From positions 1 through 50,082 of IMG/VR virus record IMGVR_UViG_2703718827_000002: a DNA stretch of 50,082 nt. One strand, 5' to 3'. A program made the translations under genes and the position numbers. This DNA is from a virus. Its lineage: Duplodnaviria > Heunggongvirae > Uroviricota > Caudoviricetes. Below, piece by piece: positions 11,419-43,177 of the stretch. The notes under the pieces are model-generated. The model was not told where the DNA came from. It searched no databases and saw nothing but the letters and a program-made list of their open reading frames with translations. Within the stretch, counting starts at the first letter, position 1; each line of letters begins with the position of its first letter.

Positions 11419-11520
11419 TTTACATCGGTCTGCCGCAATGGTCGCATCCTAAATGGGTGCGGTTGGGGATCACCAGCCTTGAAGAGTATGCCCGTCACTT
11501 TAACTGCGTGACGCGGGCAT
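11415..11520 (+). pseudogene. yecE: 5' fragment of yecE, truncated at a prophage junction
   Basis: [32 protein letters not shown] matches the recalled YecE N-terminus for about 35 codons, then diverges into AT-rich phage-end sequence. Confidence 0.6.
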
Positions 11521-11638
11521 TTTAAAAATCACTAAAGAACGCCCAAGAGCATGTGTTTTCTTTAGTTTATTCAATGCATTAAAAAATAGTTTCGCATGAA
11601 ATTCGGTAAACTTCATGTGTGCAATAATGTCCCATTCA

Positions 11639-11690
11639 TGCCCCAAAATGCCCCAAAGCAGACATTTTTGCCCCAAGTATGCCCCACAAG
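11639..11690. repeat. Four direct TGCCCCA(A/C)A repeats with helical phasing
   Basis: Copies start at 11639, 11649, 11669 and 11680 (spacings 10, 20, 11 bp), about 120 bp inside the yecE junction. Confidence 0.6.
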
Positions 11691-12012
11691 TCACGTCTTC
11701 AAGTCGTCTATATCCATAGCACACCGAGTTACATTCTTGCATCCGGGGTGTCGACAATACCTACTTTATTGAGTGTGCGAGAATTACCAGGAACCTTTCC
11801 ACAATGTAGTAGTCTAATAGTCGAATCCATCTAACATTAAGAAGCGTTATGATCACTATCCTCTCATTGATATCTTCTGTAATAGTCACTCTATGTATCA
11901 TGGTGTTCGCTACAGTAAAGGTAGGGATTGGTTTGTCTAACAATCCAGACAGAAATGATAATTAACCTCAACCACGTAACCCCACTTCATACTTCACTTA
12001 ACAGTGATGTGC

Positions 12013-19605: not shown

Positions 19606-22600
19606 TTATGTGAGGCGTTGACTGGTGTTGAAGTTGTTGGTCAGTGCGTTGGAGAGTTTTCCTTTGCCGCTGGCGACGTCACTGACAGCCATGGCATAGC
19701 CCTGCTGCGCCCCGCGCTTGACTGCGGCCTCGAGCATGGCCAACTGCTGCTCAGTCGGATCCCCGTTAACCTGAATGACCGGGCTGTAACTGAACGCCCC
19801 GCCACCACCGCCCATATCGCGGTTACTGATGACGCGACCGTTATCGCCGGGGATCATGTACTGCTTGCCGGTGCTGGCCTGGTAAATCTCTGGCTTACCT
19901 TTCTCGCCGACCTGATACAGGCCACCGGCTGATACCGGTCCGCCATTGTACCGCGCTCCCGCTATTGAAAGGGCCTGCGCCATGCCAACTGTTGAAGCTA
20001 TTCCCGCCTGTGCCGGCACTGCATTCGCGCCAGCAGTTGCAAGAGATGTCATTGCGGCTGCAGGGGCCATGGAAGCGGCGATTAGCTGCCCTTGCGCAAT
20101 AGCCATTCCAGAAGCGGCGGTCATGCCAGCCTGACCCATAATTACAGACTTCAACCACTCAACCCCCATCTGAACAAAGGAGTTGATGACGCTGTTAAGT
20201 ACCGTCGAGCCTAGCGACCGCATAGCTTCGCTGACAGACATGCTGCCAGTGATTATGCCAGTGAGGGCGTTGGAGGCGTTTCCAGCAAATGAATCAAACG
20301 CCGCGGCAGCTACTTCATATCCTGCATTTTGTTGTCGCCATATCTCCCACTGCGCCGCTATGCGCTGTTGCTCGTACTGAGTGTTAGCGGCATTCATCAG
20401 CTCAAGTCCGCGCTGAGTAATCTGCCCCTTCTGCGATTCAAACTGCTGGATTAGAGCCAACTCCTGCGCGTGCTGGTTAGCCAGCTGTTGGACAGGGTCA
20501 ATCTGCCCCCGAGCTTCCTGCATGGGGCTTACAGTTTGCTGAGCGCGTATCTTAGCCAGATTAACCTGGTGCTGAGCCTCCAGTTGCTCACTGGTCTGAT
20601 TGTACTGCTGCTGAGTGATTTTTTTGGCGGCCAGTGCAGTTTGCAGATCTTTAACATCCTGCTGGTAAGACGCATTCTCTCTGGCTTCAGGGAGCAGTTT
20701 TTCTGCCGCAGCCTGGGCTTTGAGGGCATTAGCCGTATCCCATATTTCTCCACGGTATTTACCGGCAAGAGCAATTTGCTCTTGGGTGGCTCCCTTACCT
20801 AGTGATTGCTGAGCCTGTAATACTGCCTGCTCCCGGCTTAACTCCTGCGTTGAGCCAGCAGCGAGCTCTGATTGCTGGCGCAGATTTTCAAGTTTTTGGT
20901 TTACCGATTCCTGCTGGTTAGCAAGTTTCTTAGCCTCAGATTCCGCTTCCTTGGTGGCCTTTTTGTTATTTTGCTGCGCTTGTTGAGCATCGAATTCAGC
21001 TGCTGCTCTGTCACGAGCAAGGTTAACATCCGCCTCTGATCCACCGAGTTTCCTAATGTCCTGCTCAGCCCTTAATTGCGCTCGCTTCCTGTCATTAAGC
21101 TCGCTCTGAAGTGTTACCTGATCCTGTAGCTTATCCAGATACTCCTGAACATCTTTCGGGCGTTCAATCATGAGGCTGCTGGAGTTGAATTTGTCTTTTG
21201 CCTTGGCCGCAAAATTAATCATATCTCCCAACTTGCTCATCATGCCGGCAGCAATTCCCGCTTCCTGCCCATCCCTGCGCAGCAAATCGATACCTTGCTT
21301 CATCGTTCCGTTTAGCGTAGCGCGGCCAATGTTAATGGCGTTTTGGGTCTGACTCAGTCTGTTCTGGGCCTTCTCCAGCTCAAGGGTAGCTATAGCTAGG
21401 TTATCCTGTGCGCCGCTAAGCGCCTCGGCAGCCTGCCGCCCTCTCGTTGTATTCGTACCCCAGTTTGCAATTTCTCGCTGCTGTCGCTGGACAGCCGATG
21501 TCGCGTCATTGAATTCCTTTTGTGCGTCTGATACCGCGTCACTTAATTCAGGCAGGCTTTGGCTTAGCTTTCCTATCGTTGCCGCCAGCTCTGTATGCGA
21601 CATCGTCTGGAATTTTGAGCTCAGATCGTTAACGCTATCTGCAAGGGCATTAGCGTCATTCCTGGCCTCTTTTGCGCGCTGTGAAAAGTAAAGGATTGCA
21701 CTAGCAGCAAGCATTGCCGCTCCGGCAGGCCCACCAATTAACCCGAGAGCCCTGCTAGCCAGGCTGGCACCAGATGAGAGAGCCATTTGAGCAGCCCTGT
21801 TTGCCGCCAGTGCTCGATTATAATTATCAACCGCACCGGCAGCCGCAACCCTGGCAACGGACAAGCGCTGTTCAGCTGCCGCAGCGTTGGTTTCGCTGAT
21901 AGCAGTAAGGCGCATCATTTCTGCGAGCCTTATCTCATCTAAGGCCCGTTGTTTTGCGACCGCTGCAGCCCTGAGGTCTGCCGCTGCTTTATTCGCGGAA
22001 GCCTGAGCTGCTAATGATTCTTCTGCTGAAAGCATGCGTGATGCGGCAGCTGCTTTGATTTTAGCCGCAGTAGCCATAGTTAAGGCGCCGACATACCGAC
22101 TCCCAAGAATAGCCGCGGCACCAGTCAGCAACGCGCTCAGTCCGCCAATATTCTCACTGATGGTGACCACTGCATCACTAAAAATTGCCGCGCCTGTTTT
22201 AACCGTAGAATTTTCACCGAAGAACTTAGTGATGTTATTGCCAGCAACCTGAAGAGCCTGGCTGATAGTCGTAGTGGTGTTGGCAAATTCAGCACCGATT
22301 AAACTCCCCTGGGAAAGCAGACCGTTAACCACAACATCTGTCGTTAGCTTGCCCTGTGCCGCCATGTTGCGCATCTGGCCGATGCTGACCCCCATAGAGT
22401 CAGCAAGGGCTACGATAAGGCGGTTACCCTGCTCGTTTACAGAGTTGAATTCCTCGCCGCGTAAAGCTCCAGAAGCAAGGCCCTGAGATAGCTGAATAAT
22501 CGCGTTCTCGGCCTCTTGCGCCGTGGCACCTGATACAACGAACCCTTGGTTTATAATTGTGGTTAACTTCGCCAGATCATCTGCGCTGGTCCCGTACTGC

Positions 22601-22980
22601 CTGGTTGCCCTTTCTAGTCTTGCGTAGAGGGATGCCGTTGCATCTAAACTACTGCGAGTTTGCTGAGTAATGTTGAAAACCCGCTCGGTTACATCGGCAA
22701 GTTGTTCTGATGGGCGAATAGAGTTTGATAATTTATTGTTAACAGTAGCCCACGCATCAGCGTATTCAGCCACCTGCTGAACTGACAATGCCGCGGTGAG
22801 CGCAACCGCTACACGTGACAGACTCGACATTGAACGCTCAGTAGTATCAATTGAGCGCGTTGTTTTATCAAAGCCGCGCTCCATCAGATCAAGGCGCTGA
22901 TTAACGCGCTGCTGAGCAGTAAGTAGCCCGCGCACATCCATTTCAATGTCGTAATAAATACCGCCAGCGTTCTCAGCCAT
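19606..22980 (-). CDS. Tail tape measure protein
   Basis: 1124 aa, Ala/Gln-rich coiled-coil-like composition, Gly-rich C-terminal region, position between chaperone and tail tip genes. Confidence 0.85.
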   Translation of the reverse strand: MAENAGGIYYDIEMDVRGLLTAQQRVNQRLDLMERGFDKTTRSIDTTERSMSSLSRVAVALTAALSVQQVAEYADAWATVNNKLSNSIRPSEQLADVTERVFNITQQTRSSLDATASLYARLERATRQYGTSADDLAKLTTIINQGFVVSGATAQEAENAIIQLSQGLASGALRGEEFNSVNEQGNRLIVALADSMGVSIGQMRNMAAQGKLTTDVVVNGLLSQGSLIGAEFANTTTTISQALQVAGNNITKFFGENSTVKTGAAIFSDAVVTISENIGGLSALLTGAAAILGSRYVGALTMATAAKIKAAAASRMLSAEESLAAQASANKAAADLRAAAVAKQRALDEIRLAEMMRLTAISETNAAAAEQRLSVARVAAAGAVDNYNRALAANRAAQMALSSGASLASRALGLIGGPAGAAMLAASAILYFSQRAKEARNDANALADSVNDLSSKFQTMSHTELAATIGKLSQSLPELSDAVSDAQKEFNDATSAVQRQQREIANWGTNTTRGRQAAEALSGAQDNLAIATLELEKAQNRLSQTQNAINIGRATLNGTMKQGIDLLRRDGQEAGIAAGMMSKLGDMINFAAKAKDKFNSSSLMIERPKDVQEYLDKLQDQVTLQSELNDRKRAQLRAEQDIRKLGGSEADVNLARDRAAAEFDAQQAQQNNKKATKEAESEAKKLANQQESVNQKLENLRQQSELAAGSTQELSREQAVLQAQQSLGKGATQEQIALAGKYRGEIWDTANALKAQAAAEKLLPEARENASYQQDVKDLQTALAAKKITQQQYNQTSEQLEAQHQVNLAKIRAQQTVSPMQEARGQIDPVQQLANQHAQELALIQQFESQKGQITQRGLELMNAANTQYEQQRIAAQWEIWRQQNAGYEVAAAAFDSFAGNASNALTGIITGSMSVSEAMRSLGSTVLNSVINSFVQMGVEWLKSVIMGQAGMTAASGMAIAQGQLIAASMAPAAAMTSLATAGANAVPAQAGIASTVGMAQALSIAGARYNGGPVSAGGLYQVGEKGKPEIYQASTGKQYMIPGDNGRVISNRDMGGGGGAFSYSPVIQVNGDPTEQQLAMLEAAVKRGAQQGYAMAVSDVASGKGKLSNALTNNFNTSQRLT

Positions 22981-23039: not shown

Positions 23040-23420
23040 TTAGTTTAGGAGGCCTGATTTAACTTCTGTATTTGAATTATTAAATAAGTAATTATCTACA
23101 ATATCGCCCTTAAACACGATTATAAGCTGCTTCATGTTGGTAGTAGCGCCGTTATCAAATAGTCCATAGATGGGAATAAATGCTTTCCCGCTGACCTGTG
23201 TGTTTGTGAAAACATAGTGCCACTGTTCTTTCCCATCACTGGAGATTGATACCCCAGTTGGATCTCCATATGCAGCCTTAACCTCTTGCTTCGTCGTCTT
23301 TCCTTTGATTATTTTACTCTGAATGCCAATCTGCGTTTCTTGCTCAATCGACTTATTGCCGCCAGAAGCACAACCGGCAAGTACAACCGCTATTGCTGCA
23401 ACCAATAGAACCTTTTTCAT
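23040..23420 (-). CDS. Lipoprotein with BamE (SmpA/OmlA)-like fold signature
   Basis: MKKVLLVAAIAVVLAGC lipobox; KQEVKAAYGDP...EQWHYVF resembles the BamE motif; ATG 23420 with GGGGA RBS (track start 23480). Confidence 0.6.
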   Translation of the reverse strand: MKKVLLVAAIAVVLAGCASGGNKSIEQETQIGIQSKIIKGKTTKQEVKAAYGDPTGVSISSDGKEQWHYVFTNTQVSGKAFIPIYGLFDNGATTNMKQLIIVFKGDIVDNYLFNNSNTEVKSGLLN

Positions 23421-23560
23421 ATCCCTATCCCCATCAGTAAATGATGCGGCAATCGTAGCAGAGGGGAAGCGATACGACAAAGCAACCTGTTCGCTTATCA
23501 GGATGTTCAGCGGTACGATAGCAAGGTAGCCTTGAAGCAGGCATCAACCAAGGAATCATC

Positions 23561-24034
23561 ATGGATAAGTTTGACCGTAAACTTCAGCGAGAAATACTAC
23601 AGGCTTGCGTAGATAGCTATCCAGCCGCACCTCTTCTCGAACAATTTAACCTTACGGAAGTAGCAGAATGTGCAGAAAGCAACATTCAGAAGCTATTAGC
23701 TAACATAAATTACCTGTGCGAACACGGACTAATTAAAAATAACAGCTCCATTATTCTTAAGGACCGCTCCATCCTCACCCGGATCACCGCAACAGCAAAA
23801 GGCATCGACTTCATGCTCAATGATGGTGGTCTATCAGCGATCCTGAACGTCCAGACTATAAAGCTTCATCGTGACTCAGTGGTCGTACTCGAAGACCTGA
23901 TCGCCATTTCAAACATGAACGACGAGCAGAAGGAAAAAGCCAAGTCGACTCTCGGCGAAATGTCGACGGAAGCCATTAAAACCGTGGTGCAAGCCGTGAC
24001 GACTGCAGGGTTATCAAAGCTGCTCGGGCAATGA
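23561..24034 (+). CDS. Hypothetical protein (157 aa), opposite strand to the late operon
   Basis: AAGGAA RBS; divergent from the lipoprotein gene, convergent with the Panacea operon; no family recognised. Confidence 0.5.
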   Translation: MDKFDRKLQREILQACVDSYPAAPLLEQFNLTEVAECAESNIQKLLANINYLCEHGLIKNNSSIILKDRSILTRITATAKGIDFMLNDGGLSAILNVQTIKLHRDSVVVLEDLIAISNMNDEQKEKAKSTLGEMSTEAIKTVVQAVTTAGLSKLLGQ

Positions 24035-24050
24035 AGCAACCCTTCAAAGC

Positions 24051-24078
24051 AAAAAAACCACCAACGGTGGGTTTTTGC
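24051..24078. terminator. Bidirectional rho-independent terminator
   Basis: AAAAAAACCACC-AACG-GTGGGTTTTT between convergent genes. Confidence 0.7.
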
Positions 24079-24531
24079 TTAGGTTCCTGTCAATCCATCA
24101 TCTGGCTCAGGCTGATCAATTAACTGAGCATTGGTGCAGTATCTTTCTTTGAACCTTATCATCTTCGGTTTTGCTTGTTCCGAAATGTCAAAACCAGACA
24201 GAATTCTGTCAAAAACAGCTTCAGCCATATCGTCATGAGTCGTAACTTCGCCAGCTGCGTGTTTTCTTTCTAAATTATCAATGCGCCAAATTACAGCTTC
24301 AGCATAAACGATATAGCTTGGATGTTGGATAAACCTGTGATCACCAGGTTGGAGAACACATGCGTCATCATGCGGCACGCCAGGCTTAATGCTTGACACA
24401 TTAACAACCAATATACAGTAACAGTCGTTAACTGGATAATAAACAGGATCGTTGCATATCACATGAAGATGATTGCATGGCCCACTTGGAGCCAAAACCG
24501 TTCCTTTTCGATAAGGTTGAAATGTGCTCAT
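24079..24531 (-). CDS. Hypothetical protein (150 aa), candidate effector/toxin partner of the Panacea gene
   Basis: ATG overlaps the Panacea stop (ATGA coupling); no family recognised; several Cys/His residues. Confidence 0.5.
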   Translation of the reverse strand: MSTFQPYRKGTVLAPSGPCNHLHVICNDPVYYPVNDCYCILVVNVSSIKPGVPHDDACVLQPGDHRFIQHPSYIVYAEAVIWRIDNLERKHAAGEVTTHDDMAEAVFDRILSGFDISEQAKPKMIRFKERYCTNAQLIDQPEPDDGLTGT

Positions 24532-25100
24532 GACAATTGAGAAGAAAACTCCTTAAGTTCTTGTGACTCACGCATACTCCTAAGTATATTCTCTACTTCT
24601 TCAGGAGTTTTCCCAGCATCGATAAATATTTCACGTACATCTATAAGAGTTCGTGAGCCATGCGGGTCATGCCACTCAGGGCAAACGTTTCTAAGATGAG
24701 TCATATCGCGCAATTCATATCTGTTCATATGCCCATATTGTGCATATATTTCATCCAAAATGCGGATATCTGCCCTGCTCAATTCATCGAAGACTTCATC
24801 AGCGTCCATCTCACGAGGGTCGGTTCGTAAGCAGACGTCATGATGATCGGTTTTTATCAAACGATACCAGTAGTCACCATCAATGTCAGCGCGACCACGA
24901 ATCAGATCCAGTGTAGTTGACATAACCGGACCGTGGGGCATTGAGTAAAGCTTGTCTTCACCCATCATGCGACCATGGCGAATCATTGACTGCCGGTTTG
25001 CCAAGTATAGCAGCTTCATAAGCTTCAGATATGCCATGCGCCCGCCGCGTTTAAGTAGCAGGTAAGCAGCCATCTGAGCCACTTTTTCTTCGCTAAACAT
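24528..25100 (-). CDS. Panacea-domain (DUF4065) protein, PanA/SocA-like antitoxin candidate
   Basis: N-terminal VAQMAAYLLLKRGGRMAYLKLMKLLYLANR...MPHGPV matches the DUF4065 signature; ATG 25100 with GAGG RBS (track start 25112 is TTG); AT-rich upstream region. Confidence 0.6.
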   Translation of the reverse strand: MFSEEKVAQMAAYLLLKRGGRMAYLKLMKLLYLANRQSMIRHGRMMGEDKLYSMPHGPVMSTTLDLIRGRADIDGDYWYRLIKTDHHDVCLRTDPREMDADEVFDELSRADIRILDEIYAQYGHMNRYELRDMTHLRNVCPEWHDPHGSRTLIDVREIFIDAGKTPEEVENILRSMRESQELKEFSSQLS

Positions 25101-25169
25101 ATTGAACCTCAATCACTTACAAAATACAGAACGGAAAATTGATGTATACATATCGTTTTATTGATTCTG

Positions 25170-25410: not shown

Positions 25411-26109
25411 CTATCTCTCCTGCTCCATCATCGCCTGTCTGCGCTTACGGCGCGTAAAGTAGTCATCAGCTGCGTGATCGTACTCTTCGCGGGTGTACCC
25501 TTTCTGCTCAGGGTACTTAGCGATGAGCATTAGCTGAAACTCGGTCATCGTCAGTTGTCCGGCCTCTTCCTTGCTGATACCGAAGTGGTTCCGCGCTGCG
25601 ATGATGTAATCTGATGCCCGGAATTCAGATGTTGTATCACTGGATTCGTGCCGCTGGAGCTTTCTAATTTTCGCTTTACCGATGATGCCGTGCATCATCA
25701 GACTTTTGGCGACGATCACCATGCTTTCTGGCGGCATGGTGCCCGGGCGCCAGACGAAGCTACGCTTGCGTGATTTCCCGGGCTTCATCCAGCCAACCAG
25801 ATCGCCGATATCATCGTTACAGCACGCCGTAAGCACCGTATGCGCTGCCATGATGGCCTTGCGTGACAGGAGCCCGCTTTGCATAAACCTCAGGACACAA
25901 TCTGGAAAGCGGCTGTACTCATCGCGTATATAGGCCTCAGCTGCACGCTGTGCGAATGGTGTCGTCTCGTCATTGCACAGGTCATAGAACGCCTGAACGA
26001 TTTCAGCCGGATCGCCAATTCGCGACATGGCAAGCAGTGACGGGCGGAAGAAATAATCCCTGTCTCCGGCAGTAATGACGCATTCGCCAAACTCTTTAAC
26101 TGGTGTCAT
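25411..26109 (-). CDS. Putative tail assembly chaperone (G/GT position)
   Basis: Position between major tail and tape measure; N-terminal GDRDYFFRP resembles chaperone motif; single 232-aa ORF with no visible frameshift partner. Confidence 0.45.
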   Translation of the reverse strand: MTPVKEFGECVITAGDRDYFFRPSLLAMSRIGDPAEIVQAFYDLCNDETTPFAQRAAEAYIRDEYSRFPDCVLRFMQSGLLSRKAIMAAHTVLTACCNDDIGDLVGWMKPGKSRKRSFVWRPGTMPPESMVIVAKSLMMHGIIGKAKIRKLQRHESSDTTSEFRASDYIIAARNHFGISKEEAGQLTMTEFQLMLIAKYPEQKGYTREEYDHAADDYFTRRKRRQAMMEQER

Positions 26110-30588: not shown

Positions 30589-31977
30589 TTACTCCGGCAT
30601 TTCGCTGACTGATTGGGTGTTGGTTGCCTGATGGCGGAATGCACCGTTCAGGCCGAAAGATGTCTGGCACTTGGCGTACATGGCGTCGAGCGCCTTACCG
30701 TCCAGATCCGCGACTTCGTCGTCGCTCATGTTCATCGCCAGCTTCACAGCCGCGCGCTTTTCGCCTTTCTCTTTATCGGCGTTAGCGCTCAGGCTGTTGA
30801 AAACGACGTCCACGCGATCGGCGAGTTTCTGCGCCCACGCTGGCATCTCTTCGTTATTGGCGGCCTGCTCTTTTTTCTTGGGCTTGCCGGTTTCCGGGTC
30901 GATTTCTTCATCGCCTTTTTTCTTGGCGGTGGCTTCTTCGGCCTTCATCTGGTTGTATGCGTCCATCAGCTCGGCGTCGGACTTGCCTTCAGTCGGCTTA
31001 CCAGCGGCTTGCAGCGCATTGATAATCAGTTCTTTCATCGGATCGTTCTCTCCGTTGGTTTTAATCTCGTACTCAGTGGGTTTGCGCACGACTTCTACAG
31101 GTTCGCCGACGAACACGGCCTTGCCGTCATCATCGATGAGGTACTTCTGTTTCAGGTATTTGGTGTCATTGCGGTAGATGAAGCTGTCCGGCCACACCGT
31201 TTCAGGCCAAAGCCACTTATCTTCGGTGTCACCCTCGCGCAGCTTGTCGCTGATAGCGCGGGAGATATCGTCGAAAGAGAAATTAGAGGCATTGGTGAAG
31301 AAGAATTTGGTCTTGTTGAGCAGGCCGTCTCGGGTACAGTCGATGCCATCAGCCAGACGGGCAACTTCAATCTGCTGCTCATCACCTTCAGAGTTAACGA
31401 AGATGCCCACGCCATCCTCCGGCGTACCCGCGCCAGGCTCATCGAGCAGCACCGCCACATGGTCAAACATCATGTTGGTGGCGATCTCGTTGTACTTCTT
31501 GCCCTTCGACTCACCATTGGCGGCGATGCCGGAATACAGCAGACCGGTTGAGATGTGGATCGGGTCGGAGTTGGTACCAGCCAACATCTCATCCAGACGG
31601 TTAATCAGGCGCTTGCCCTTGTCGCTGGATTCGGCGTACTGGCGGTTAACGTACATATCGCCCGTCACTTTCCCGTCTTTGTGGCTGACGTTCTGCAGCC
31701 ATGCCCCGACGTGATACTCATTCACCGCCCGGACATCGCGCGCCGAAACATGCTTGCCGTCCACTTTCGGATGGCCCAGCGGCATCGGGTTGCGCTCGAG
31801 TGTGTTGTAGGCCTTTTCGATTTCGGCTGCCGGGTACAACTTCCGGTTCATCACAATATCGTCCACGACAGGCGTGATGCCGCGAACCACGATATGTGGC
31901 TTGCCGTCGATGGTTTCAGTGGTGATGTTTGAAGCGGAGTTGACGACGGTCAGCACGTTAACGCGGTTGCGTTTCAT
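30589..31977 (-). CDS. Prohead protease / scaffolding protein
   Basis: 462 aa; charged Lys/Glu-rich C-terminal half typical of scaffold domains; position after MuF-like gene. Confidence 0.45.
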   Translation of the reverse strand: MKRNRVNVLTVVNSASNITTETIDGKPHIVVRGITPVVDDIVMNRKLYPAAEIEKAYNTLERNPMPLGHPKVDGKHVSARDVRAVNEYHVGAWLQNVSHKDGKVTGDMYVNRQYAESSDKGKRLINRLDEMLAGTNSDPIHISTGLLYSGIAANGESKGKKYNEIATNMMFDHVAVLLDEPGAGTPEDGVGIFVNSEGDEQQIEVARLADGIDCTRDGLLNKTKFFFTNASNFSFDDISRAISDKLREGDTEDKWLWPETVWPDSFIYRNDTKYLKQKYLIDDDGKAVFVGEPVEVVRKPTEYEIKTNGENDPMKELIINALQAAGKPTEGKSDAELMDAYNQMKAEEATAKKKGDEEIDPETGKPKKKEQAANNEEMPAWAQKLADRVDVVFNSLSANADKEKGEKRAAVKLAMNMSDDEVADLDGKALDAMYAKCQTSFGLNGAFRHQATNTQSVSEMPE

Positions 31978-32004
31978 GCTGGGTCCTCGTTATTGGATAT
32001 CTGG

Positions 32005-32030
32005 CAATAAAAAAGGCCGCCGTAGCGACC
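32005..32030 (-). terminator. Terminator-like hairpin plus T-run after the inserted membrane-protein gene
   Basis: On - strand: GGTCGC-TACG-GCGGCC followed by TTTTTTATTGCC; same family as the 15128 and 22996 elements. Confidence 0.5.
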
Positions 32031-32046
32031 TTCAGGAGCTCTGAGG

Positions 32047-32562
32047 TTATTTAAATTTAAGTTCTTTTTCAGCGTCCAAGACAATGGCATCAATAAGTTG
32101 CTGGGTCGCAATCGTCATATCATTGTATGCCACAAAATCTGGGTAACCCTCTTCGTAAACACTATGATCGGAATCAGCGTCCTGCTTGAAGAAATTATTG
32201 AGCAAATCCCTTGTATTATTGCTTAGAGAGATTGGTGCGAGCACATAAAACCGATGGAGTTGCGCTTTTATTTGATGGAATGTATTCCAATCAACAGACC
32301 CTTTCGGCGGCGGCCTACCATACATACCAGCATTGTATTCAGCCTCGTAAAAATCTGAGGCGTGGGAATAAATTGCTTTGATTTCAAATAATTTATCAAT
32401 TAATTGATTGTACGCAGCATGTTTCTTCTCCCACCATTTTTCTTTGTAAAATCGATTCAGAGCGAAAAATGCAGTAAATCCTGCTGCCACAACCCCAGTG
32501 GTGATTGGAACAACTAGAGATAAAAAGAATGAACCGACTTCTGCCGGAGTTACACTGCTCAT
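32047..32562 (-). CDS. Membrane-anchored hypothetical protein (171 aa), insertion in the head module
   Basis: N-terminal transmembrane helix (FFLSLVVPITTGVVAAGFTAFFAL); visibly AT-rich; AAGGGTGA RBS; own downstream terminator. Confidence 0.55.
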   Translation of the reverse strand: MSSVTPAEVGSFFLSLVVPITTGVVAAGFTAFFALNRFYKEKWWEKKHAAYNQLIDKLFEIKAIYSHASDFYEAEYNAGMYGRPPPKGSVDWNTFHQIKAQLHRFYVLAPISLSNNTRDLLNNFFKQDADSDHSVYEEGYPDFVAYNDMTIATQQLIDAIVLDAEKELKFK

Positions 32563-32601
32563 TGCTCACCCTTAAGCAACTTTATCATTTACATGATGAT
32601 A

Positions 32602-33606
32602 TCACTCCGACTCGGATTTCCAAGCTTTCCTCTCTTTCGCCAGTTTCTCAGCCAGCCCCTCATTGAAGATGCTGCCGTCGTCGTTGAGCAGCACTGGGAT
32701 CTGGCTGCAGTAGCAGTTGTACCGGTTGCCGTTCTCGGCGTAGAAGTCCCGAATCTCTTCGGTGGTGTAGACCTTGCCGTGGCGGCTGGCATGCCAGGTT
32801 CGCGTCGTTGGTTTTAGCGCTGACAACCACAGTAGGCCGGTATTCAGCCCCAGCCGGTCAGCAGCCCAGTCGGTTTCGTTCCATTGTGCCTGCCGCAGTG
32901 CGCCGACCTGCTCAGTCTGAGCGATGGTCTTTGCCTTCGACATCGACACATCGAGGCGCTTGCTGATTACGCTGGCCGTCTCGCGAGGGTTCACCCCGCG
33001 CGCGACCGCATCGGTGATGATGTTGGTCAGGTCGCCGCGGGCTGTATCGCTGATGACCTTCCAGTCACTGAACGTTGTCAGCCTTGCCGCTGCCACCTGA
33101 TTAAGATGACCGGGACTGCTTAAAAGCTGCTGCAGCGTCGTCTGACTGGCATACACCTGCGACTGTTGCGAGAGGTTATTGAATGCCTCAAGCGTGCCGC
33201 GCTGCGCTTCTGCGACGACGTAATCCATCGCCCAGAGATTTTGCTCGCCACCATCCAGTAGGTAATCGTCGAGAATGGCCTGCACCGCTTCCAGCAGGTC
33301 CGCCAGTTCCTGCGCCGACATGTCGTAGATGAACTTGCCGGCGTTTACCTGGTAGAGGCGCATATCCGCGCCGTGGTCATGACAAAGGAAGTGCCAGTTA
33401 TGGCTGTTAACCTCGCGCTCACGCCCGGTAAGGCGCTGGTCGAACAGAGATTTCAGCGCTCGCTTGATGCCGATATATCGCTTCTCGATATCCCGGAACA
33501 TCGCGGTTACCTGCTTTGCCGATAGGGTTGGGTCAACCTTGCTGCGCGGAACTACCGGTGTCCCGACTTTCGTCTTTTGCTCCGGCGTCATCGGAAAGAG
33601 GATCAT
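32602..33606 (-). CDS. Phage head morphogenesis protein (Mu gpF / SPP1 gp7 family)
   Basis: C-terminal LLWLSALKPTTRTWHASRHGKVY signature of the MuF-like domain; position after portal. Confidence 0.7.
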   Translation of the reverse strand: MILFPMTPEQKTKVGTPVVPRSKVDPTLSAKQVTAMFRDIEKRYIGIKRALKSLFDQRLTGREREVNSHNWHFLCHDHGADMRLYQVNAGKFIYDMSAQELADLLEAVQAILDDYLLDGGEQNLWAMDYVVAEAQRGTLEAFNNLSQQSQVYASQTTLQQLLSSPGHLNQVAAARLTTFSDWKVISDTARGDLTNIITDAVARGVNPRETASVISKRLDVSMSKAKTIAQTEQVGALRQAQWNETDWAADRLGLNTGLLWLSALKPTTRTWHASRHGKVYTTEEIRDFYAENGNRYNCYCSQIPVLLNDDGSIFNEGLAEKLAKERKAWKSESE

Positions 33607-39511: not shown

Positions 39512-39587
39512 TGGTGCTGATTGACGGAGTTGAACCGCCGACATCCTGCTTACAAGGCAGGCGCTCTACCTACTGAGCTAAATCAGC
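39512..39587 (-). tRNA. tRNA-Thr (anticodon TGT), phage-encoded
   Basis: Hand-folded cloverleaf: 7-bp acceptor stem GCTGATT/AATCAGC, D-arm GCTC/GAGC, anticodon arm CCTGC-CTTGTAA-GCAGG, T-arm GGCGG-TTCAACT-CCGTC, 3' ACCA; differs from recalled host tRNA-Thr. Confidence 0.8.
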
Positions 39588-42417: not shown

Positions 42418-42597
42418 ACGGCCTCCTTAACGGAAACCGCAGAATGCAGAAAATCGCAGGTGCATTTCTGCATCTGTGACAATGTGAGGAGTTCAGATTG
42501 TGGTCGCATTTAAGTCCCCTTAAATGCGCAGAAGTCACCAATGGGTGTTCAGACCATCAGCAAAGAAAGTATGGACGGTTGATTCAACAAAATCAAC

Positions 42598-42623
42598 TGA
42601 AGAGAAAGGCCTCCGGAGAGGCC
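42598..42623 (-). terminator. Rho-independent terminator (tR2-like position upstream of nin region)
   Basis: On - strand: GGCCTC-TCCG-GAGGCC followed by TTTCTCTTC. Confidence 0.55.
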
Positions 42624-42629
42624 AATGAG

Positions 42630-42911
42630 TTAGTCGTCCACGCGTTTAAAGCACTGCGGGCAAACATCATTTCCACCGTGTTCTTCGTATGCGCTTTTAA
42701 CAGCATCAGTCATCTCTTTAAAGCTTTCGAATAGATGACTACCGTTGCTTTTTTTATAAGCTCCGGCTGCGTATTTGTAGATGTCGGACTCTTCTATGCC
42801 CTCATCAACATAAGTGCCCTCATGATGAGGGCACTGCGTTAAAGCGCCAACCCTACCAAGCATCTCCAATGCCCAACACTCTTGTTTCATGCAAAGTTGA
42901 TCGATACTCAT
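42630..42911 (-). CDS. Cys-rich hypothetical protein (93 aa)
   Basis: ATG 42911 with AGGAGG RBS (track start 43004); paired CxxC motifs. Confidence 0.5.
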   Translation of the reverse strand: MSIDQLCMKQECWALEMLGRVGALTQCPHHEGTYVDEGIEESDIYKYAAGAYKKSNGSHLFESFKEMTDAVKSAYEEHGGNDVCPQCFKRVDD

Positions 42912-43177
42912 AACGCCTCCTGTTGGTTTTACATCGCCAAATGAATGTACCACCATGCAAGAGGAAATGAAGCAGTTAAATTGTAAAACATGTGTATATA
43001 TCAATGAGTTAAAATAGTTTGCTATTTTTCTTACAGCCTTGCTGCGTCGAATGGGTTAGGCATGGCGACCTCTACACGAGCTGAAAATATAAGCCGCTAC
43101 AGCCAAATCCTGAATTGCTGTTATTGCCAGCATCCAACCATAAATGCTGTCATTGAAATGCCACGCCAGCGCTGTAA

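Follow-up and report, generated by a model that had tools for sequence, protein, structure and literature searches.

A predicted membrane-anchored cargo gene in a hypervariable slot of a prophage head-gene module

Morons, in the Juhala/Hendrix definition summarised in PMC3594210, are recognised as extra DNA that is missing from close relatives, deviates in base composition, brings its own promoter and terminator and is transcribed while the prophage is repressed. One of them, in the late operon of phage HK97, encodes gp15, an inner-membrane superinfection exclusion protein (Cumby et al. 2012, reviewed in PMC3594210), and PdpSau of Staphylococcus aureus prophages and AbiP of Lactococcus are abortive infection (Abi) proteins in which an N-terminal membrane helix is joined to a cytoplasmic domain (PMC10127798). 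Here we describe ORF171, an open reading frame (ORF) of 171 residues on the minus strand (32047-32562) inside the phage head module of a 50,082-nucleotide stretch of Caudoviricetes DNA (the whole of which, positions 1 to 50,082 of IMG/VR record IMGVR_UViG_2703718827_000002, is called the window below). ORF171 is very probably a moron-type cargo cassette sitting in a recombination hotspot and not a component of the head. Morons and cargo hotspots are already known as kinds; new are the delineation of the MuF-scaffold junction as a hotspot with 27 types of cargo, and the placing of ORF171 in a large, sharply defined and uncharacterised membrane-anchored family.

The slot between the MuF-like and DUF2213 genes

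ORF171 begins 39 bp after the stop codon of a MuF-like head morphogenesis gene on the same strand and is followed by a DUF2213 gene, downstream of which lie the genes for a 144-residue protein and the DUF6260 major capsid protein. We surveyed the equivalent of the interval 31978-32601 in 80 IMG/VR phage contigs with MuF proteins 91-100% identical (loci L110-L189), of which 79 contain both flanking genes. Among these 79 the slot, measured between the MuF stop and the DUF2213 start, is 15 to 1304 bp long and is occupied by 27 unrelated clusters of cargo. Members of the ORF171 family are present in nine slots and missing from the other 70, three of which are genuinely empty. The most frequent cargo, seen in 10 of the 79, is a signal-peptide protein that is read from the opposite strand and named by NCBI as a 'Rap1a/Tai family immunity protein', i.e. 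a protein of type VI secretion system (T6SS) immunity; the remaining cargos are HNH endonucleases or unannotated proteins, many of the latter 60-250 residues long. Three Klebsiella phages carry unrelated slot ORFs of 158, 74 and 104 residues between flanks of ~86-89% DNA identity, and in phage ES18 the MuF-like gp6 and gp7 are only 2 bp apart. As near-identical head modules carry the same slot either empty or filled with any of these cargos, a conserved role in the virion or its assembly is excluded in this lineage and, judged from these genomes, ORF171 is dispensable for the virion.

The base composition of ORF171 is foreign to that of the surrounding head genes, its guanine-plus-cytosine (GC) content being 39.9% (36.6% at third codon positions) compared with 58.1% (73.4%) for the MuF-like gene and 55.5% (71.7%) for the DUF2213 gene. 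Purifying selection (a ratio of nonsynonymous to synonymous substitution rates, dN/dS, of ~0.1) and thousands of homologues indicate that it is a real gene; the opposite strand of the region offers only short ORFs of 42-56 residues, a scan of the region matched no Rfam family, and no transposon-like flanking repeats were found around ORF171. Small slot ORFs of normal GC content are translationally coupled to MuF by an ATGA overlap and have no terminator, whereas AT-rich cassettes such as ORF171 bring their own. The last MuF codons also vary with the cargo.

The predicted hairpin (a 9-bp stem with a TACG loop) and T-run downstream of ORF171 correspond to the terminator expected of a moron, the 43-nucleotide stretch that contains them folding at -15.5 kcal/mol (z = -2.2). 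An intrinsic terminator follows ORF171 homologues in nearly every context, including other slots. Different cargos sharing a terminator had raised the idea that it belongs to the phage backbone, but this is ruled out by its absence from truly empty slots, from which it follows that the terminator travels with the cargo. Separately, a 49-bp segment (31983-32031) shares ~90% identity with the terminator annotated downstream of gene 3 (gp3) of the Salmonella phage ES18 (locus L028, 4001-4049), a small gene between the terminase and portal genes, and unrelated cargos are followed by related terminators with the tail TTTTTTATTGCC. It may be that cassettes are exchanged by recombination at such a common terminator module.

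Much of this had been anticipated by a first-pass annotation of the window, which described an AT-rich ORF inserted between a MuF-like gene and a protease/scaffold gene, with its own ribosome-binding site and a terminator-like hairpin, and which called for comparison with related prophages lacking the insert. The ORF, its signals (Table 1) and its status as an insert are all borne out, the last by the survey and by ES18. Of the 'protease/scaffold' label for the downstream gene only part stands: the gene is there and is probably a scaffold- or protease-like head gene, but its match to phrog_2229 'head maturation protease' is weak (E = 0.033) and no PDB relative of its product was found.

Table 1. 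Coordinates of ORF171, its flanking genes and signals, and other features of the window
Feature	Coordinates	Strand	Basis or description
ORF171 coding sequence	32047-32562	minus	Homologues, AlphaFold2 models, conservation, GC/hydropathy/charge bias, dN/dS
ORF171 predicted parts			N-terminal tail 1-8; membrane helix ~9-35; neck R37-F38-Y39-x-E41-K42-W43-W44-E45-K46-K47; cytoplasmic four-helix bundle to residue 168
MuF-like head morphogenesis gene, 334 residues (left boundary of slot)	32602-33606	minus	PF04233, E = 1.3e-11; phrog_758 'head morphogenesis', E = 1e-141
DUF2213 / phrog_760 gene, 462 residues (right boundary of slot)	30589-31977	minus	PF09979, E = 5e-5; phrog_760 is of unknown function
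Ribosome-binding site TAAGGGTGAG	32565-32574	minus	Sequence reading; AAGGG core 6 nucleotides before ATG
Promoter-like site: -35 TTGGAA, 16-nucleotide spacer, extended -10 TGATATCAT	32596-32623	minus	9/12 consensus matches plus TG
Predicted intrinsic terminator GAAGGUCGC-UACG-GCGGCCUUU plus U-run	32005-32033	minus	9-bp GC-rich stem
Second AT-rich ORF, 220 residues	37528-38190	minus	39.1% GC
AT-rich cluster of four ORFs	23040-25112		43-46% GC
ORF within the cluster	24528-25112		100% identical to a protein with a SocA_Panacea domain (PF13274)
DUF6246 gene	25411-26109		Tail-assembly-chaperone-like
Tape-measure gene	19606-22980		
tRNA-Thr (anticodon TGT)	39512-39587	minus	Sole Rfam/ARAGORN match in the window
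Low-GC patch	11501-12000		39.8% GC in composition profile
Low-GC patch	42501-43000		44.0% GC in composition profile

Predicted topology, fold and family of ORF171

The single N-terminal transmembrane helix that had been claimed for ORF171 is recovered as one hydrophobic segment (residues ~9-35, Kyte-Doolittle mean 1.94), and hydropathy reveals no second. Across 252 family members the N-terminal tail of ~11 residues holds a mean of 0.57 lysines plus arginines and the 15 residues after the membrane helix a mean of 5.0, so that by the positive-inside rule the N-terminus is predicted to lie outside and the C-terminus inside, placing the soluble domain in the cytoplasm. A cleavable signal peptide is disfavoured because there is no positively charged N-region. 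The AlphaFold2 model of ORF171 (predicted local distance difference test score, pLDDT, 85.6; predicted template modelling score, pTM, 0.71) has a continuous helix from residue 6 to 81, in which the membrane helix runs through a neck into the first helix of the bundle, and three further helices complete a four-helix bundle. The model of a homologue only 24% identical has the same architecture (pLDDT 95.2, pTM 0.83). The models and charge bias make it likely that ORF171 crosses the inner membrane once and carries its four-helix bundle in the cytoplasm.

Conservation is concentrated close to the membrane, the far half of the bundle being poorly conserved. The membrane helix presents a conserved face of small residues (G/A23, A26, A27, T30, A31, A34), directly followed by the invariant motif RFYxEKWWEKK, with which the conserved neck opens (R37 F38 Y39 x E41 K42 W43 W44 E45 K46 K47, continuing with A50 Y51, L54 and L58); the C-terminus is also conserved (A164-K-x-(D/E)-L168). 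Region-wise dN/dS along the gene is uninformative because synonymous sites are saturated. Searches for relatives of the fold returned only generic four-helix bundles and no specific link. A profile search of PDB matched the C-heptad repeat of human immunodeficiency virus gp41, which we regard as a chance heptad match and not homology, as residues W44-Y51-L54/55-L58 are heptad-phased.

A word-indexed search retrieved 64 clusters, all from Enterobacterales and all 'hypothetical', and a profile search of 1.84 billion representatives retrieved 1,265 proteins at E<=1e-3, counted as clusters at 50% identity, 234 of them at E<=1e-10. The best 150 of the profile matches are mostly full-length proteins of 150-200 residues. 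When genomes were scanned with the motif [RK]F[YHR]xE[KR]WW[ED][KR], members were found in all classes of Proteobacteria and in Bacteroidota, Verrucomicrobiota, Acidobacteriota, Gemmatimonadota, Chloroflexota, Planctomycetota, Omnitrophota, one Microgenomates genome and Bacillota, a span of more than ten phyla, and nearly all of these ORFs combine a short tail, one membrane helix and the motif. The first-pass annotation had seen no recognisable family. This holds for Pfam-A (E<=0.1), PADLOC, NCBIfam and PDB sequences, none of which ORF171 matches, but not for phrog_17948, a family of unknown function that it matches at E = 3e-30. Pfam scans of 34 and a further 10 relatives gave nothing consistent, and PADLOC-DB v2 scans of 60 relatives gave scattered weak hits (E>3e-4), none common to more than two. 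One relative matched a '1TM effector' of the cyclic-oligonucleotide-based antiphage signalling system (CBASS) at E = 0.037; this was reproduced in only 1 of 50, and the match is ascribed to the membrane helix. No conserved partner gene was seen in 78 loci, where the neighbours that recur most often are integrases, recombinases, transposases and generic ABC ATPases, and literature searches with the PHROG identifier, the motif, or DUF2213 together with 'moron' found nothing. On these searches the ORF171 family is large, solitary and unannotated.

The exact ORF171 protein occurs in 712 blocks of the searched collection and in 365 contigs of Enterobacter, Klebsiella, E. coli and Cronobacter; at the six loci inspected it occupies the same slot, with differing lysis and terminase modules around it. 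Diverged homologues fill the same slot in E. coli (52% identity) and K. aerogenes (38%). The first-pass annotation had named homologues that are conserved virion or assembly components as the observation that would speak against it; homologues instead occupy non-structural positions. They lie 24-30 bp after the N antiterminator gene and co-oriented with it, beside xis/int in phages CobraSix and OS31 (early-left operons) and in two prophages, and in the nin region, flanked by ybcO and the lysis genes. A Proteus prophage has a 31%-identical homologue immediately after an unrelated MuF-like gene, with scaffold and capsid genes of another type. In a Gibbsiella quercinecans prophage remnant (locus L016, 6001-6889) the homologue, its terminator and the first 100 DUF2213 codons abut PDC-M09A/B and an OLD-family nuclease, and in Salmonella enterica CP191473 (L030, 5971-6483) a lone homologue with a decayed terminator relic lies between ycgN and dsbB. 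Family carriers are rare among deposited phage genomes (2 of 50,697, both temperate, no virulent phage) and among complete E. coli genomes (3 of 5,426).

A degraded form of the same prophage is found in E. coli A14 (NZ_CP028760; L026, 10562-11647), where TnpB/InsQ and integrase genes take the place of the remaining portal sequence and of the terminase genes. Its truncated portal homologue is labelled 'anti-CBASS protein Acb1 family protein' in RefSeq and matches Pfam Phage_portal_3, so the Acb1 label looks like a naming artefact.

Expression and possible functions of ORF171

The -35 element of the promoter-like site upstream of ORF171 overlaps the last MuF codons, and the TGA within its extended -10 is the MuF stop codon. 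A TGnTAT(A/C/G)A(T/A) element recurs at the equivalent position in the diverged cassettes L012, L013, L031, L032 and L033, and the extended -10 at the MuF stop is kept across cassettes whose proteins are 38-60% identical. This is probably a sigma-70-like promoter of ORF171, and we treat it as the candidate for the promoter that a moron should have.

We propose that ORF171 is a horizontally acquired promoter-ORF-terminator cassette in a hypervariable slot of an ES18-like or Klebsiella/Enterobacter lambdoid prophage, that it would be transcribed in the lysogen from its own extended -10 promoter, and that its product, acting at the cytoplasmic side of the inner membrane, would guard the host and the prophage against other phages. 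We hold this account of prophage expression and protection tentatively, at somewhat short of an even chance. It is preferred because of the moron anatomy, the restriction of the family to temperate elements and chromosomes, its retention in prophage remnants, and the precedents of HK97 gp15, PdpSau and AbiP. Superinfection exclusion or abortive infection, the functions which the first-pass annotation had suggested, are plausible. Since the soluble domain is predicted to be cytoplasmic, a periplasmic blocker is disfavoured and an intracellular Abi-like or membrane-face mechanism fits better.

The most speculative part of the proposal concerns mechanism. Self-association could be driven by the small-residue face (G23, A26, A27, T30, A31, A34) together with the aromatic neck and its heptad phasing (W44, Y51, L54/I55, L58), the variable distal end of the bundle could recognise a phage product, and recognition could lead to perturbation of the membrane or a block of a membrane-associated step, in the manner of AbiP, PdpSau or the Csx28 pore. 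Taken together, these steps are a long shot.

Several observations weigh against a protective, prophage-expressed ORF171. It has no sequence similarity or specific fold similarity to known defence or exclusion proteins, and profile searches (Pfam-A at E<=0.1 for ORF171, with nothing consistent in the same 34 and 10 relatives) revealed none to SieB, SieA, Imm/Sp, gp15/YebO, Cor or Ltp. dN/dS, with synonymous sites saturated, gives no hint of diversifying selection. Many homologues lie among the housekeeping genes of environmental bacteria, and among 149 immediate neighbours of distant homologues only ~8-10 proteins at a few loci match defence models, about the level of chance (a single BrxL, GajA with GajB, a type II restriction-modification pair, KwaB and two mad3 hits). 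Promoter-like sites of the kind proposed are no more numerous in the region than in shuffled sequence. Two homologues located 24-30 bp after N are too close to that gene to have separate promoters, which means that part of the family must be expressed together with the early lytic genes; with these and the homologues within early-left operons in view, expression of ORF171 during lytic growth is equally possible.

Two rival explanations are serious. The first, which we think rather unlikely, is that ORF171 serves lysogenic conversion or host fitness unrelated to phage, for example as an orphan immunity protein against a membrane-acting toxin (a colicin, T6SS or contact-dependent inhibition effector) or as an envelope-stress protein. 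The Rap1a/Tai protein that is the favourite cargo of the same slot would suit such a role, as would a family whose members are mostly chromosomal, solitary and scattered across phyla, and HK97 gp15, too, is derived from a family of host membrane proteins. Against it, no toxin gene is regularly found next to family members, the neck motif is invariant over the full phylogenetic span, unlike fast-evolving immunity proteins, and a cytoplasmic domain is ill-suited to effectors acting in the periplasm.

The second is that ORF171 is a lytic-cycle accessory, acting in counter-defence, host takeover or the control of membrane events, and expressed not from the prophage but from antiterminated early or late operons. 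ORF171 does lie on the late-operon strand shortly after MuF, and the positions of homologues behind N and in the early-left operons of CobraSix and OS31 are those expected of such a gene. Set against this are the near-absence of the family from deposited phage genomes and its complete absence from virulent ones, the retention of the gene in prophage remnants and as lone chromosomal copies, its wide distribution in bacteria with no phage context, and the cassette-borne terminator, which suits a transcript that is not subject to antitermination. On balance a lytic-cycle role is unlikely. ORF171 itself has no Pfam holin match, and prophages that carry it have separate holin, endolysin and spanin genes upstream, as found when a holin or antiholin role was considered.

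Two further explanations are effectively excluded. A virion or head-assembly component, such as a membrane anchor for prohead initiation, is suggested by the location inside the head module and by the Proteus homologue behind a different MuF-like gene, but is made very improbable by the many near-identical phages that lack ORF171, by the empty slots and ES18, by homologues in early operons and chromosomes, and by the foreign composition. Some temperate phages encode MuF proteins with C-terminal toxin domains, the immunity gene following immediately, and the variation of the last MuF codons with the cargo could recall this arrangement, but an immunity protein for a MuF-fused polymorphic toxin is even less credible here, as this MuF-like gene lacks a C-terminal toxin extension (the PF04233 match ends at residue 302 of 334, with no second domain and no room for a toxin) and the same MuF is paired with 27 cargos or none.

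Returning to the protective role that we prefer, it is possible, if doubtful, that ORF171 is the first recognised member of a widespread single-gene family of membrane-anchored exclusion or Abi proteins and that the MuF-scaffold junction can be mined for conflict genes. If ORF171 does act in exclusion or abortion, it would add to the defence repertoire a very compact, partner-less membrane module with a sharply defined and easily mutated motif and a wide taxonomic spread. Whatever its function, prophages that are frequent in Klebsiella, Enterobacter and E. coli are now seen to have a hypervariable slot in their head operon, with T6SS immunity proteins and homing endonucleases among its cargos, and it is a practical place in which to seek prophage-borne conflict genes in these clinically important hosts.

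Other AT-rich regions and comparison with known systems

The window contains further AT-rich regions (Table 1). The 220-residue ORF, flanked by the lysis genes and the small terminase gene, looks like another moron; its match is to phrog_18591, a family of unknown function (E = 5e-37), and searches of Pfam, PADLOC and NCBIfam gave no hit. Beyond it and the terminase genes a tRNA gene lies inside the prophage. The cluster of four ORFs between the DUF6246 and tape-measure genes occupies the classical HK97 gp15 moron slot, in which sister prophages carry NYN or KilA-N genes; the SocA_Panacea match of one of its ORFs suggests that this ORF and the 150-residue ORF just downstream may form a Panacea-type toxin-antitoxin or defence pair.

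HK97 gp15 is a close parallel to ORF171 in genetic terms. Both are small genes of deviant GC content placed between conserved late morphogenesis genes (tail chaperone and tape measure for gp15, MuF and scaffold for ORF171) with terminator and promoter elements, which for ORF171 are a predicted terminator and a candidate promoter; both have an inner-membrane product, predicted in the case of ORF171, and mostly bacterial homologues, and both are missing from close relatives. The two have no sequence relationship, as no Pfam family matches ORF171, and ORF171 differs from gp15 in its predicted cytoplasmic four-helix bundle of ~130 residues. Exclusion is an established activity of gp15 and a proposed one of ORF171.

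SieB of P22 and lambda and SieA of P22 resemble ORF171 as prophage accessory membrane proteins of similar size (162-192 residues), and sieB lies in the early-left region near N, as do some ORF171 homologues. The likeness ends there: lambda sieB is on the strand opposite to N whereas the ORF171 homologues are co-oriented with it, and SieA has three predicted membrane helices (PMC10883804), not one. A direct relationship to SieB was rejected, hhalign giving a probability of 0.1% against the lambda protein.

In architecture AbiP and PdpSau come closer, as single-gene systems with an N-terminal membrane helix and a cytoplasmic C-terminal domain, the arrangement predicted for ORF171, and PdpSau, like ORF171, is accessory prophage cargo found in its slot in place of other cargo (PMC10127798). 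Their cytoplasmic domains are, however, positively charged, nucleic-acid-binding and similar to an oligonucleotide/oligosaccharide-binding (OB) fold, whereas the ORF171 model is an all-helical bundle, and no sequence similarity between ORF171 and either protein was detected. Csx28, an accessory protein of Cas13b that oligomerises into a pore, is built from an N-terminal membrane helix followed by ~150 cytoplasmic residues of helical fold; with ORF171 it shares at most a way of working.

At the level of the slot, the nearest counterparts are the P2/P4 defence hotspots (PMC9122126), which like the MuF-DUF2213 slot are fixed sites between conserved genes where unrelated cassettes are swapped among near-identical elements. 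The slot described here differs in lying within the head-gene operon of lambdoid siphoviruses, and in that most of its 27 cargos are unannotated, those that can be named being a T6SS immunity protein and HNH endonucleases.

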